A stretch of DNA of 64,000 bases from Octopus vulgaris (Eukaryota), in assembly GCA_951406725.2 (NCBI GenBank), contig OX597821.1, forward strand, positions 69,378,001-69,442,000. The letters run 5' to 3'. Below are positions 33,729 through 52,469 of this stretch, piece after piece. The notes below the pieces were generated by a model. It saw only the letters and a list, made by a program, of their open reading frames with translations, was not told where the DNA came from and ran no database searches. The position numbers and the translations under genes were made by a program. The stretch's first letter is position 1; each line of letters begins with the position of its first letter.

Positions 33729-35138
33729 ATAACCTTTGCATTTGATTTTTTGATGTCTTTACCCCCAAACTTTCGTGAGTTGAGTTGAGCAAACACTATA
33801 CGAGAGAGGTTTTCTTTAAGTATTAGAAATAATTTTAAAAAAGTTTTTTAGCTGCTATTTCTAATGAGTTCAGTATGCGGTAAAGTAATTTATTTTACTA
33901 AGCCCTTTTATATAATGTAATAATTTGAATTCGCCTTAAATGGTCCCTTTGCATACTGAACACTTGGTGAAATTGATTAATAATTAATTAATTTTACCCT
34001 CAATTGTTGAAATTATAATTAATCTCCCTCTAATTAATGCTTCGGATTTTACCGAAATAAGCATAGTGTTTGCTGATTTTAACCCACGCTGGTGGAAAGG
34101 GGAGAACAGAAATTCTTCGCTTGCATATTTGGGTTTGTTGGCACTGTTAGTTACGAGCAGATCTTCGAAAGCGATGAGAAGCCGAAAGGGTATGCTCTCA
34201 CTTTCAGTGTTTTCAAATCCAAACCAAGGAGTTTCTGAGCTGATGATAGAAGTGTCGTGTTGACTAATCTTGAAACGTACGTTCTCAAATAACCTTTGCA
34301 TTTGATTTTTTGATGTCTTTACCCCCAAACTTTCGTGAGTTGAGTTGAGCAAACACTATACGAGAGAGGTTTTCTTTAAGTATTAGAAATAGTTTTAAAA
34401 AAGTTTTTTAGCTGCTATTTCTAATGAGTTCAGTATGCGGTAAAGTAATTTATTTTACTAAGCCCTTTTATATAATGTAATAATTTGAATTCGCCTTAAA
34501 TGGTCCCTTTGCATACTGAACACTTGGTGAAATTGATTAATAATTAATTAATTTTACCCTCAATTGTTGAAATTATAATTAATCTCCCTCTAATTAATGC
34601 TTCGGATTTTACCGAAATAAGCATAGTGTTTGCTGATTTTAACCCACGCTGGTGGAAAGGGGAGAACAGAAATTCTTCGCTTGCATATTTGGGTTTGTTG
34701 GCACTGTTAGTTACGAGCAGATCTTCGAAAGCGATGAGAAGCCGAAAGGGTATGCTCTCACTTTCAGTGTTTTCAAATCCAAACCAAGGAGTTTCTGAGC
34801 TGATGATAGAAGTGTCGTGTTGACTAATCTTGAAACGTACGTTCTCAAATAACCTTTGCATTTGATTTTTTGATGTCTTTACCCCCCAAACTTTCGTGAG
34901 TTGAGTTGAGCAAACACTATACGAGAGAGGTTTTCTTTAAGTATTAGAAATAGTTTTAAAAAAATTTTTTAGCTGCTATTTCTAATGAGTTCAGTATGCG
35001 GTAAAGTAATTTATTTTACTAAGCCCTTTTATATAATGTAATAATTTGAATTCGCCTTAAATGGTCCCTTTGCATACTGAACACTTGGTGAAATTGATTA
35101 ATAATTAATTAATTTTACCCTCAATTGTTGAAATTATA
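33729..35138 (+). mobile_element. Tandem array of 560-bp units (2.5 copies), one hammerhead per complete unit; retrozyme-like
   Basis: Near-identical units starting 33731, 34291, 34851; (TA)n on both sides; hammerheads at 34236-34287 and 34796-34847. Confidence 0.85.
34236..34287 (+). ncRNA. Type I minimal hammerhead ribozyme (copy 1; copy 2 at 34796-34847)
   Basis: TGAG-CTGATGA-T[AGA..GTC GTGTT GAC..TCT]T-GAAA-C(GTAC)G-TT/CTCA: 4-bp stem I, palindromic stem-III loop, GUU site after 34283. Confidence 0.78.
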
Positions 35139-35565
35139 TATATATATATATATATATATATATATATATACATATATACATATACATATATATATATATA
35201 TATATATATATATATATATATATATAATGTATGTATATATATATATATATATATATATATATATATATATATATATAAATATATACATATATATATGCAT
35301 ATATTTATATCTTTGTGTGTATATATATATATATAGCTGTATGTGTGTGTATGATTGAGAAGTCATGACAACTTGATTGAGAAGACCCGGTATAAACTTG
35401 ATGATGGATTCAGCCGATAGCTGTACTCTTTCTGTATCCGACATCAGCTGTTCGACATAGGCTATCAGCCCCCTCTCAATTCCACACACTGGAATGAATG
35501 GCTGTGGGCATAAGGGGGGACGTGGGATGATGCCAAAATCGTGCCTTGACAGCTGTCTCGAACTG

Positions 35566-37300
35566 GTAATGGTTTTATCCCTGAATGTTAGATCCAGTAC
35601 GACCAACTCACCTTCTGAGTCCACAAAGATTGTACGTATCTGCAGAGCCAAGCTTTTTCGGAGCAAAACCACAACGCCTCCACCCCCCCGGTCTGTCTAG
35701 GAGACATGATTTTCTTATAGCCATTCAGGAGAGTCGAGAAGGCATGTAGCTTGTCAAACTCGGTCTCTGTAGCCACCATTACATCTATACTATGTAACCT
35801 GAGGTCGTTGGGGAAACAAGTTTGCTTCCACTTCGAGCTCAGATCACGCACATTCACACAACCTATGCTGAATGTAGCCATATCAAAAAAAGGTAAAAAA
35901 AAAGAAAAATTGGGCTTACCTGCCCTTTTCGTCTGTAGAGGGGAATTGATCTCAGTACTACTGGGATATACTCCCCTTCTCCCTTCCTCTCTTCCATGTT
36001 TGGCTCAACCGGCGGGTTAAATATTTTTGGGAGTGTCTTAAGCTCTGTAATATCTCTAGGCTGTCTTGTCTTTAATTCTATATAAAATTTATATGAAATA
36101 TTTCCAATCGTGTTGGTATTTTTCTCATTGTCCTGATAGAAAACTTTGGATTGGAGGTGGGGCCTAATCACCCCTTCCAAATAACGGTTGGTGTTTTTAT
36201 ACACCACCATAACTGTGTCTGGTTTATAATTTTTCCTCCAGGTTTTGCATCTTGAATTCCTTTTTCCCCCCTTTTTCATCTCTTTATTTTTGTCACTGGG
36301 TATCTCTGGGGACTGCTCCAACTTTGTTTAATCCTTTTTTACATGTTTTATTTTCGGAGTCGCCTCTTGTGACTTGGTTGGCGACTCCGTCTGTCTCTTC
36401 GTTCTTTTACGAGGCACCGTCTGAAAATCCATGTTTTCTCTATGCCCTTTACTGGCTCCTTTTTTTCATCCGCCTCTTTCGACTTTTTCTCGTTGGTGGT
36501 CGCCCTCTGAGTAATGGCCTCCTTCACCAGGACTGCCGCATCTTTTTCCTCTTTATGGGTCTTTTCCTCTTCGGTCTCCTCCTGGGGAGGCAAGCGCTTG
36601 GACCTCGGGTGCCGCTTCTTCCCGCACCTGAAGCATTGAGGCTTCTTCCCCTCCACATTCACTATTAACACTGTCTTCTCCCCAACATGGATCTTGTCCG
36701 GGAGACTTCCAAGGTTGTTGGAAGTGGCTTGCGCCAGTATTTCCAGAGTCTGCCCCTTCTGTGGGGCATATTTGGAAATCTGGATGAAGTTAATTTTATC
36801 CCCTCTTTGAAATAACAACGTGGCCACAACTCAAGCGACCTCTATTTCTGATGGATGTGCTTGATTCAAATCCGGGAAGTTCTGAGTCCCAGATACAATA
36901 GCAGAAGTGAGATTTGCTCGTTTTGCAAGATTGGAGTCAAATACTTACGAGCCTTCTCTGCCTACTCGAACCTTACCTCCACCGTTGCGTCCCTGGTGCC
37001 TTGGTCCAGATACATGATTTACTTCATCACCGGACCGAGGCATATTTCGATAGGTCCTTCTTCAAAGAATTCCAGTTTTTTTATTTACTATGTCATATGT
37101 TTTGTAGATTATGGTTTTCTCTTTTTTGTTGTTGTTGATAATTCTACTTGGGATGGGGGGGGGAGCAACTTTACTTCCTCTATCCCGTCTTCTGTTATCA
37201 TTCAAAGAATGACTGAATTTCTGCCTTTTCAAGCGAAATGATTTCCTGTTGCCCTCCCACAACGGAGGCAAATTTTTTTATACACTGGCGTTCTAAAGAA
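35566..37300 (-). mobile_element. 5' part of an L1/Tx1-like LINE (ORF1 with zinc knuckle, start of AP endonuclease), decayed
   Basis: VEGKKPQCFRCGKKRH (CCHC-like); IGCVNVRDL...IDVMVATET...GGV..LLRKSL...[11 protein letters not shown] (APE N-terminal motifs) across frameshifts. Confidence 0.7.
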
Positions 37301-37643
37301 GACATTTTGTTTTTTTTTTAAACAAAAGTTCTAACACAGGAGCAAAAATAGTCACACACAAAGTTGAAAATCTTTCCCTCTTAGGGAAGGATAACAATTC
37401 AACAAATGAAAAAACCTTTCAACAACGTTTCCCATACGGGAAACCAACAGAAAGCAAAACCTGCAATCAGGTAACAAGATTTAACAAACAAACCTTACGG
37501 TTGCAACGGTGTGACTGATAAAGCCACTTGCCAAAGACAGAGATGATTTAACAACGGTAAAAATAAAATCTATGTTAATTTATTGATGCATTTGGAAAAG
37601 TCTATGTTTGTATTATCAGACAATTGCCAAAAATGTCTAAAAA

Positions 37644-50780: not shown

Positions 50781-51001
50781 TATATATATATATATATATA
50801 TATATATATATATATATATATATATATATATATATATATGTTTGTGTGTGTGTATGTGTATATATATATATATATATATATATATATGTGTGTGTGTGTG
50901 TATATATATATATATATATATATATATATGTTTGTGTGTGTGTGTGTGTGTGTGTGTGTATATATATATATATATATATATATATATATATATATATTTA
51001 A

Positions 51002-51480
51002 AGGGCTAAAAACCACTATGTGATCAGCCATATGCTTGAAGTAATGCTTGAAGTAGATCACCTGCGATCAAAATATGTTCTCTAATAGGCAGCATTAACT
51101 GCAGTAAATTATTTTGTTTCCGGAATTTTAGCGCGCCAGAACTCAGACATTTGAAATTAACACAATGTAATCGGTGAAACTAAACACGTGTCTGTTTTTA
51201 TACGGAAAATTAGTGGTTAGTTTTACAAATTATATTACCTGTGAAACGATCGTACTGACGAGCCCTACAGACGATGGATTGCGTAAGTGATTCGTTCGTT
51301 AATAGGCGAAACCTAGGTCTGCGATTAATTCTTGTTTTTTATATAATTTTCATCTGTCTTGCGCGCATATTGTTCTGGTGTCCGCTGAATTTTTTCTCTA
51401 GAGAACATTCTTTTCTTTGTAGTTTGATCGCAGGTGATCTACTTCTAGCATATGGCTGACCACAGTGGTTTTTTAGCCCT
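51002..51480 (+). mobile_element. 479-bp element with ~58-bp inverted termini, TTAA flanks and a central hammerhead ribozyme
   Basis: TTAA|AGGGCTAAAAACCACT...CCTGCGATCAAA (51002-51072, with a 12-bp duplication) versus TTTGATCGCAGG...AGTGGTTTTTTAGCCCT|TTAA (51423-51480). Confidence 0.85.
51248..51326 (+). ncRNA. Type I minimal hammerhead ribozyme, canonical core
   Basis: GATCGTA-CTGACGA-GCC...GGC-GAAA-C(CTAG)G-TC/TGCGATT: 7-bp stem I including G.U pairs, G10.1-C11.1, palindromic loop III, GUC site after 51319. Confidence 0.88.
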
Positions 51481-52469
51481 TTAAATATACATATGTATTA
51501 GAATTTTGTCTGATTCTTCAGATTTTTGTATGCTAGGCTACTGGTTTTAAATTGATATTAATTAAATTAATATTCAATTTACCTCCCTCGTTATTTAAAT
51601 GTTTATATATATATATATATATATATATATATATATATATATATATATATATATATATTATATATATATGTATATATGTATATATATATATATATATATA
51701 TATATATATATATATATATATATATATACGACTCTCTCTATTTCTCTCACTTTCCATACAAATATGTAGCTCATGCTCAGTGTGTGTGTGTCTGAGAGTG
51801 TGTATGTGTGTGTGATTTTAAAATATTTATGTAAAAGTTAATCTATCTTCATAGCATACTTTTCTGCTTACAAATATGATTTTTCTTACTCACACACGCG
51901 CGCGCTTGGTACAGGGTGGGGGATTGAGAATTTTAATTACAAAAATTTTCTTGTTGCTTAAATCCCATCAATGGACCACCGATCAGCATTTCATAAAATG
52001 CGTTTATCGGGAAAAATATTAAAGATATCAATACATGTAACAAAGAAACAAGCAAGATAGAAGGTGGCCGTGAAGTATGTTAGTAACAACAGCAAGATCT
52101 CCCTTAAATCACACATGTTTTCATCGAAATTGCTTATTCAGGCTGTCCATATCTTAAAAGAATGATTTATGAGGGCAGGACAGAGTTAATGAAAAAGTTT
52201 TATAATTCATAAATGAAAAAAATATATTTTATAAAAAGCATTCCCCTATCATTAGACTAGACTGTAGTGGGAAAAAAAAGAAAAAATTGAAAAATCCCCG
52301 TCAAACAGAGAAAATGCAACTTATGTGGGGGTGCTATTCCGAAAGTCCAGCAAGGCATTCTAATGCGAAATCTCTCGGGTAACGACAGGATTCTCAGCTT
52401 ACGTCATTACTTTGCTTTTCTCTCTCCTTTTTCTTTTTCTTTTTTTTCTTTTTCTCCTTTTTCCAGCAT

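Follow-up and report, generated by a model that had tools for sequence, protein, structure and literature searches.

Non-LTR (non-long terminal repeat) retrozymes of metazoans are non-coding, low-GC tandem units that carry a type I hammerhead ribozyme, and they have been proposed to depend, as parasites, on Penelope-like elements (PLEs) (PMC7229834; bioRxiv 10.64898/2026.07.22.740005). They are related to the pseudo-LTRs (pLTRs) of PLEs (bioRxiv 10.64898/2026.07.22.740005), and how they are recognised and copied in animals is stated as open (PMC7229834; bioRxiv 10.64898/2026.07.22.740005); in the portions available, these descriptions mention neither a conserved domain for recognition nor fixed 3′ ends, and no preference for a target. 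This work concerns four repeats of this kind in a 64-kb window of Octopus vulgaris DNA (contig OX597821.1, positions 69,378,001 to 69,442,000, with coordinates below counted from the first nucleotide of this stretch), analysed together with four public contig sets, runs X1, X4 and X14 among them, and the literature. Three families are named here by their units of 560, 453 and 498 bp, and a further (TA)n-flanked copy is referred to as the third element; the unit sizes lie within the 51-972 bp range of the 2026 retrozyme survey (bioRxiv 10.64898/2026.07.22.740005). The 560, 498 and third-element families share a folded RNA domain of ~140 nt, the long-range stem of which, P1, is kept by compensatory changes across all three, and the copies end just after one or other of its two hairpins, A and B.

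The closest described counterpart is the Poseidon PLE of the anole Anolis carolinensis, in which reverse transcriptase (RT) starts at two internal stem-loop sites downstream of the hammerhead, these sites being the two ends of the genomic tail, and in which the endonuclease nicks AT-rich DNA (PMC11167929). The repeats in the window likewise have two end sites, which are candidate start sites, near stem-loops 3′ of a hammerhead, and an AT-rich target. As described, however, the sites in Poseidon are 30-40 nt apart, with an AC-rich stem-loop inside an open reading frame (ORF) of an autonomous element, whereas here they are ~110 nt apart, and follow two AT-rich hairpins in non-coding sequence (PMC11167929). 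Partial tandems, inverted 5′ copies and a bias towards (TA)n are traits of PLEs in general (PMC8557442; PMC3846280). Among them, the non-autonomous Chlamys elements (MRC1), Neptune and Naiad resemble the octopus repeats in their head-to-tail multicopy insertions, microsatellite targeting, inverted 5′ copies and similarity to partners at the 3′ end, the target being (TA)n for Naiad, with microsatellite targeting put forward by hypothesis for Neptune (PMC8557442). Naiad and most Chlamys elements nevertheless lack canonical hammerheads, Naiads are reported as long extinct among cephalopods, and the available text does not describe a folded 3′ domain (PMC8557442). In the octopus repeats, the signal is internal to the tandem unit and has two end sites. 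By comparison, the 3′ stem-loops shared by long and short interspersed nuclear elements (LINEs and SINEs), and the 3′ untranslated region of R2, are structured 3′ RNA signals common to elements using the same RT, and there priming takes place at the extreme 3′ terminus of the RNA. Retrozymes themselves are already known; a literature search returned no report of a conserved 3′ domain in animal retrozymes, although repeat databases, supplements and subscription papers may hold one.

An earlier note on this DNA had proposed that otherwise different hammerhead families share a 3′ tail motif, acting as a common cis signal for RT at TA repeats. The three strings it quoted are present on the + strand (35082-35122, 50729-50781 and 51537-51589), each 0-20 nt from a (TA)n tract, and they are more alike than an AT-matched background allows, with the scores of the pairs reached by 0/1000 (560-498), 2/1000 (560-third) and 0/1000 (498-third) dinucleotide shuffles. 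When the 560 tail was compared with the rest of the window, the third element and both 498 copies took the top three places among 582 tiles (scores of 54-61, against 44 for the next); with the 498 tail as the query, the third element came first, and the 560 copies (54) were narrowly outscored by a 453 tile (55) and by an AT-rich tile of no relation (56). Among the 861 pairs formed by 42 flanks of (TA)n runs, the three tail pairs ranked 6, 17 and 22, most of the higher-ranking pairs consisting of flanks rich in microsatellites or of copies from another single family, and a post-hoc hairpin descriptor matched only the 6 copies in the window, and once in 60 block-shuffled windows. At the sequence level, the link of 560 to the other families is thus real, if weak. 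The families are not all “otherwise different”, because the 498 unit and the third element are homologous from ~80 nt after the cut to the end (local score of 126, against 52±7 when shuffled), such that the motif is at least partly shared by descent; and what had been taken for a solitary fragment belongs to the third element as its 3′ end, this element having a type I hammerhead of its own at 51255 and an inverted 5′ copy. The motif does stand at the end of the 560 array, but it is internal to the repeat unit and occurs in every unit. The earlier proposal is partly supported: the evidence favours a shared cis signal where the 3′ ends break, but one formed by a folded domain whose stems covary, not by a linear motif in the tail. 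The AAGCCCT box, reported earlier from the 560 and 453 units, is part of the same domain; it is found in 560, in the second 453 unit and also in the third element, whereas the first 453 unit reads ATGCCCT.

Folded independently, the three families converged on one architecture of P1, hairpin A and hairpin B (z scores in Table 1). P1 is a long-range stem of 8-11 bp with hairpin A stacked inside it. G-C pairs close hairpin A, after which come CT(T/C)T and an AT-rich run, this being the AAGCCCT box; after an AT-rich linker, hairpin B begins 4-7 nt beyond P1, is closed by GGT/ACC, and is followed by the pyrimidine run of the tail motif. Both hairpins have G-C closing pairs, then CT and an AT-rich stretch. 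Measured from the hammerhead cut, P1 starts 99-149 nt, and hairpin B ends 236-275 nt, downstream. Hairpin B is retained in folds of the whole monomer, and the + strand folds better than the − strand in all three domains.

Alignment with MAFFT on sequence alone brought both arms of P1 into register in the three families. Across four aligned copies, 86.8% of cells were paired and 9/17 pairs had changed on both sides, as in 0/500 shuffles, with slid registers reaching at most 44%; the 560 copy was one column off in hairpin A, and was there counted as partly unpaired. With two misaligned 453 rows added, P1 stood at 77.3% against 67.1%. Because P1 had been chosen after the folds were seen, an unbiased helix search was run across the three families, omitting the terminal 498 row as a near duplicate. 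P1 was the longest shared helix (8 bp, with 4 double changes), the next being 4 bp, and 0/500 replicates matched it in each of two column-shuffle nulls. As a duplex, P1 was equalled by 0, 123, 40 and 75 of 2000 shuffles in 560, the third element, 498 and the second 453 unit respectively, and by 502/2000 in the first 453 unit; the tests combined (Fisher) to 3e-5, or to 0.003 without 560. In run X1, the outer 10 bp of P1 contain 0/31 variable sites; at 34441, the family base converts a G-U to a G-C pair. The best non-training match of a covariance model built from the three families was the inverted arm at 50997-51173, on its own sense strand (E 0.18). The covariation counts are small, and not independent, because the three families come from one window and two are homologous. 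The 453 unit probably carries a version of the domain, this being rated no higher because the three-family model did not detect it; a first candidate for its hairpin B, at 40805, was wrong, having no similarity, and 40847-40871 is a better one. RNAalifold, applied to hairpin B alone, misaligned it and returned no covariation. Nor is the scarcity of variable sites in 34394-34583 (4/31, p 0.008) relied upon, as its bounds were set post hoc and it is confounded by low CpG content.

The ends of copies fall at this structure. On the + strand of the window, the 560, 498 and third-element copies end 16, 2 and 20 nt past hairpin B, the inverted arm ends past hairpin A, and the two end sites are 108-118 nt apart. 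Beyond the window, the 560 family was found in 20 of the 24 listed runs, from 6 coded organisms. Summed contig depth on the 560 monomer fell most steeply at 34575 in 4/4 runs (3.6-, 3.2-, 5.5- and 4.9-fold), the largest step of 27 bin boundaries, and depth from the cut site to 34575 was 1.6-4.4 times that of the rest of the monomer; since summed contig depth is not copy number, and 23 of the 219 loose ends were inspected, this supports a preferred end rather than providing a census. Individual contigs show such ends directly. In run X4, one contig ends at 34577, continuing into (TA)n with a different flank, while another leaves at 34560; in run X14, one contig has an opposite-strand joint at 34433/34469, in the hairpin A box. 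The placement at 3′ breakpoints anticipated by the earlier note is therefore borne out, both by the window's 3′ ends and by the sharpest fall in depth. Three of the four families end in (TA)n, the 560 array with TATA microhomology, and 453 ends in (GATA)n.

The 5′ ends are more varied. The 560 array starts 6-7 nt, and the inverted arm ~2 nt, past the position of a hammerhead cut; neither the 498 copy nor the third element's direct arm starts at such a point. Because two copies begin 2-7 nt past the cut position, a cleaved linear template is suggested rather than the circular one of the 2020 retrozyme model (PMC7229834), with the two cases amounting to a hint. A unit-to-unit joint, 34659>34100, was considered as a sign of circular RNA and set aside, as it also occurs in DNA runs.

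In other respects, the repeats look like retrozymes mobilised by a PLE. A check of core and helices found type I hammerheads, with intact core and helices I-III, at 34240, 34800, 40130, 50472 (C3U) and 51255, all on the + strand and all within the four non-coding repeats; in an Rfam search of the window they had no match at gathering score, nor among the 150 of 162 matches listed in E-value mode, which held microsatellite-driven miRNA look-alikes instead. The bins holding the repeats have low GC contents of 0.29-0.35, and a Pfam scan of three ORFs inside the 560 array gave no match. The 560, 498 and 453 arrays have a partial-tandem layout with permuted ends (units in Table 1). An inverted, 5′-truncated copy stands beside the 5′ end of the third element, in addition to the single opposite-strand joint in run X14; its 124/142 aligned bases identical to the direct arm, with 57 gap columns, make the arms sisters, not identical copies. 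Li et al. 2026 regard a retrozyme as “active” if it has at least two consecutive units, each with a hammerhead (bioRxiv 10.64898/2026.07.22.740005). Within the window, such a pair is found in the 560 array only, as the second of the two 453 cores fails in helix I through a mismatch, and 498 and the third element have one hammerhead each. Overall, the elements mostly qualify as, and work like, non-LTR retrozymes, and likely belong among the non-autonomous elements mobilised by PLEs. C3U cores also occur in PLE hammerheads, with a matching change at position 8 (PMC4209133), which the 498 core lacks. The 498 hammerhead combines U at core position 3 with an unchanged G8 and a very long helix II, and its activity is uncertain.

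The favoured explanation, to which we assign a probability of about 0.6, is that these are non-autonomous hammerhead retroelements of the non-LTR retrozyme type, mobilised in trans by an endonuclease-bearing, (TA)n-targeting PLE, with the ~140-nt RNA domain serving as both a binding signal and an internal RT-start signal. From the fold, covariation and copy ends observed here, we infer protein binding, internal priming and a PLE partner by analogy with the anole Poseidon PLE (PMC11167929). A read-through transcript would fold the domain, and the PLE endonuclease would nick (TA)n. The freed 3′ end could then prime at the U/A-rich stretch 3′ of hairpin B or hairpin A, through 1-4 nt of TA microhomology, with complementary DNA extending 5′-ward until it stopped early, or at the 5′ end made by the hammerhead. 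Use of both start sites on two DNA ends would yield head-to-head inversions with ends differing by ~110 nt, equivalent to a long PLE “tail”.

Several observations weigh against this explanation, besides the limits of the depth data. The ends are not uniformly as expected, with a secondary drop in depth at hairpin A among the top four in 2/4 runs only, the 453 array ending in (GATA)n away from the domain, microhomology at the 498 junction of 1-2 nt only, and a distance between hairpins A and B of 108-118 nt that exceeds the 30-40-bp PLE tail, being ~3 times the usual length. Hairpin B has no double-sided change in the sequence-only alignment, its shape being kept while its length varies. In P1, the innermost pair is lost to G34511A, a frequent variant (21-56% of depth), and a different pair is broken in the terminal 498 copy. 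When built from 560 alone, a covariance model missed the other families (E 0.37-5.6), that from three families did not detect 453 (E 8-10) and found no new members in the window, and a loose descriptor was unspecific, missing 498 while making 2 unrelated matches, against a null of 0.5 per window. The comparison covers three families of a single window, of which two are clearly homologs, and kinship alone can beat such shuffles. Nor was a partner evident, as no PLE ORF or GIY-YIG match was found in the 69 of the window's 112 ORFs that were scanned, and the three-family covariance model found no such domain in the window's pLTR-like pieces with minimal hammerheads. Metagenome scans with the 560 and 498 probes returned 0 and 0 matches.

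It is unlikely that the domain is instead a SINE-like 3′ stem-loop serving a microsatellite-targeting LINE, for instance of the R4/Dong clade, with priming on the (UA)n tail of RNA from a master copy. A stem-loop with a simple-repeat tail is the classic 3′ layout of LINEs and SINEs, TA-type repeats are targeted by Dong/Rex6 elements, and a fixed 3′ end with a gradient of 5′ truncation fits. In Octopus vulgaris, Dong-R4 is the most active LINE group by coverage (PMC13282606). Yet such priming explains the ends at hairpin B, not those at hairpin A, where the RNA would have no (UA)n tail; the units run ~270 nt beyond the end site, and overlapping inverted copies and partial tandems are PLE traits. 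Scarcely more or less improbable is that the fold is kept for another RNA-level job, such as the stability or ligation of circles, control of the hammerhead or export, with the ends an incidental consequence of a U/A-rich stretch annealing to nicked (TA)n. Covariation reflects selection on structure, and is silent on what that structure does; retrozyme RNAs are generally highly self-paired (PMC7229834); and this explanation stays in play because the 453 array, which seems to retain the fold, ends elsewhere. Against it, there are many other U/A-rich stretches per unit, yet the step in depth is at hairpin B in 4/4 runs, and the ends of three families lie 2-20 nt from that hairpin.

A signal acting in DNA rather than RNA is a poorer candidate still, whether AT-rich palindromes, as cruciforms or as hairpins of a single strand, imitate (TA)n and attract nicking by a GIY-YIG endonuclease, such that self-targeting builds tandems, or whether they act as rolling-circle (Helitron-like) terminators. 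Hairpin B is a near-perfect AT palindrome that folds on the − strand too, and the anole PLE cuts AT-rich DNA, its own pLTR included (PMC11167929). This would suit hairpin B, but not P1, as no cruciform is made by a stem that spans 80-105 nt and contains G-U pairs favouring the hammerhead strand; furthermore there is no CTRR end, no GC-rich hairpin and no fixed 5′ end. Helitrons and Helentrons are marked by a GC-rich 3′ hairpin followed by CTRR, and by a fixed 5′ end. The Helitron reading was accordingly rejected, with the interior of hairpin B being 85-94% AT, followed by CTCA, CTTA or TCCC, and the 5′ ends varying. That the resemblance is neutral, combining leftover homology with chance AT-rich similarity and no function, is the least probable of these explanations, and is largely refuted: 498 and the third element are indeed relatives, and covariance models failed on held-out families, but double-sided changes that preserve P1, and the position of the ends, are unexpected under neutrality. 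Kolobok-type miniature inverted-repeat transposable elements (MITEs) have terminal inverted repeats formed by their own ends, and a TTAA duplication. At 50998-51487, both arms are bordered by TTAA, but the right one consists of internal sequence, which has homology to the 498 unit and continues into the domain, while the left extends for ~175 nt as a gapped sister copy, and a Kolobok-type MITE was rejected. Reading the ATATAAT box as a TATA promoter is weakened by its spacing from the nearest CACT-like site, which is ~50 nt here and 20 bp in the promoter described for a pLTR (PMC3846280).

A more tentative extension of the PLE-mobilisation explanation, which we regard as possible but on balance doubtful, is that animal retrozymes across the clan carry a conserved, two-site “RT landing pad”, in which a unit of hairpin, CT and AT-rich stretch occurs twice under the clamp of P1. 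Such a module might set both partner specificity and the two insertion ends, might be a parasitic aptamer without counterpart in PLE pLTRs, and might be portable, with the hammerhead defining the 5′ end of a linear template instead of making a circular one. Were this true, any RNA given the ~140-nt module could be inserted into (TA)n. Independently of this extension, a covarying domain exactly at insertion ends names a candidate cis signal and candidate start sites. It can be mutated and rescued in a PLE assay already established in vitro, and offers a model with which to look for the autonomous partner; the choice between a circular and a cleaved linear RNA as template is also touched by it.

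Table 1. Positions of the hammerhead repeats, their ribozymes, target tracts and copies of the folded domain in the window (HHR, hammerhead ribozyme).
Feature	Position	Strand	Remarks
560-bp HHR repeat	33729..35138	+	2.5 units, 99.6% identical by self-BLAST; between two (TA)n tracts
Type I hammerhead, 560 array, first	34236..34287	+	helix III palindromic; predicted cut after 34283; missed by Rfam
Type I hammerhead, 560 array, second	34796..34847	+	predicted cut after 34843 (core-and-helix check)
Shared domain, 560 internal copy 1	33868..34000	+	
Shared domain, 560 internal copy 2	34428..34560	+	P1 34428-38/34511-21; hairpin A 34439-64 and CTTT-ATATAAT box; hairpin B 34526-58; z -5.9
Shared domain, 560 terminal copy	34989..35121	+	contains the previously noted motif, 35082-35122
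(TA)n target tract, 3′ end of 560 array	35135..35335	unstranded	
453-bp HHR repeat	40040..41027	+	2.2 units; HHR cut after 40182; array ends in (GATA)n at 41027
Probable divergent domain copy, 453 unit	40733..40873	+	7-bp P1; hairpin A box; hairpin B closed by GAT/ATC; second copy 40280-40420
498-bp HHR repeat	50128..50781	+	1.3 units; 5′-truncated
Type I hammerhead of 498	50467..50541	+	C3U core change; predicted cut after 50536
Shared domain, 498 internal copy	50143..50283	+	P1 50143-50/50223-30, intact; z -4.4
Shared domain, 498 terminal copy	50641..50780	+	one P1 pair broken
(TA)n/(TG)n tract	50781..50997	unstranded	common to 3′ ends of the 498 element and the inverted arm
Third element, (TA)n-flanked	50997-51603		HHR at 51255; 3′ end 284 nt past its own cut site
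Inverted sister copy of third element	50997..51173	−	ends directly after hairpin A (AGCCCT box) at (TA)n
Type I hammerhead of third element	51248..51326	+	predicted cut after 51319
Shared domain, third element	51444..51585	+	P1 51444-53/51528-37; hairpin A 51454-78; hairpin B 51543-83; z -4.1
(TA)n target tract, 3′ end of third element	51604..51728	unstranded	

The window is repeat-rich animal DNA in which microsatellites are abundant, and several of its other features adjoin or resemble the hammerhead repeats. The 5′ end of the 453 array adjoins a 140-nt inverted piece (39900-40039, − strand), which aligns weakly (score 60) to the 453 unit just past hairpin B; it ends in a hairpin followed by CCTTT that is like hairpin A, though the position does not match and no (TA)n flanks it. 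Downstream of hairpin B, 560 (34599-34621), 453 (40922-40936) and this inverted piece (39965-39995) have a second word in common, CCGAA(A)TAAGCA, with a TTCGG partner upstream; it could be part of a protein-binding site beyond the start point.

Minimal hammerheads of the pLTR type are present at 50019 (+), 59400 (−) and 61303 (+), with degenerate copies near 59190 and 61430. One pair forms a 205-bp palindrome (61270-61474) between (TA)n tracts, and a further piece of this type (49984-50128) directly abuts the 498 element on its 5′ side. In the sense of the hammerhead, it is the 5′ ends of these minimal elements that face TA tracts, the opposite of the arrangement in the retrozymes. Other palindromes of ~200 bp, at 37644-37844, 30678-30886 and 25220-25431, one of them centred on a (TA)n run, are possibly PLE-type inversions or MITEs.

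Further from the repeats, a 784-aa ORF (8204-10558, + strand) has a terminal F-actin-binding domain (PF08919, E 1.7e-21), and resembles what we take to be the long last exon of an Abl-type kinase. The remaining features are transposable elements, comprising a Tc1-like transposon (56677-58304) that has a DDE_3/HTH frame of 351 aa and inverted repeats of 226 bp (93%), a broken LINE with RVT_1 and zf-RVT matches (44764-46370, − strand), and a fragment of a mariner-type transposase (27991-28293, + strand).

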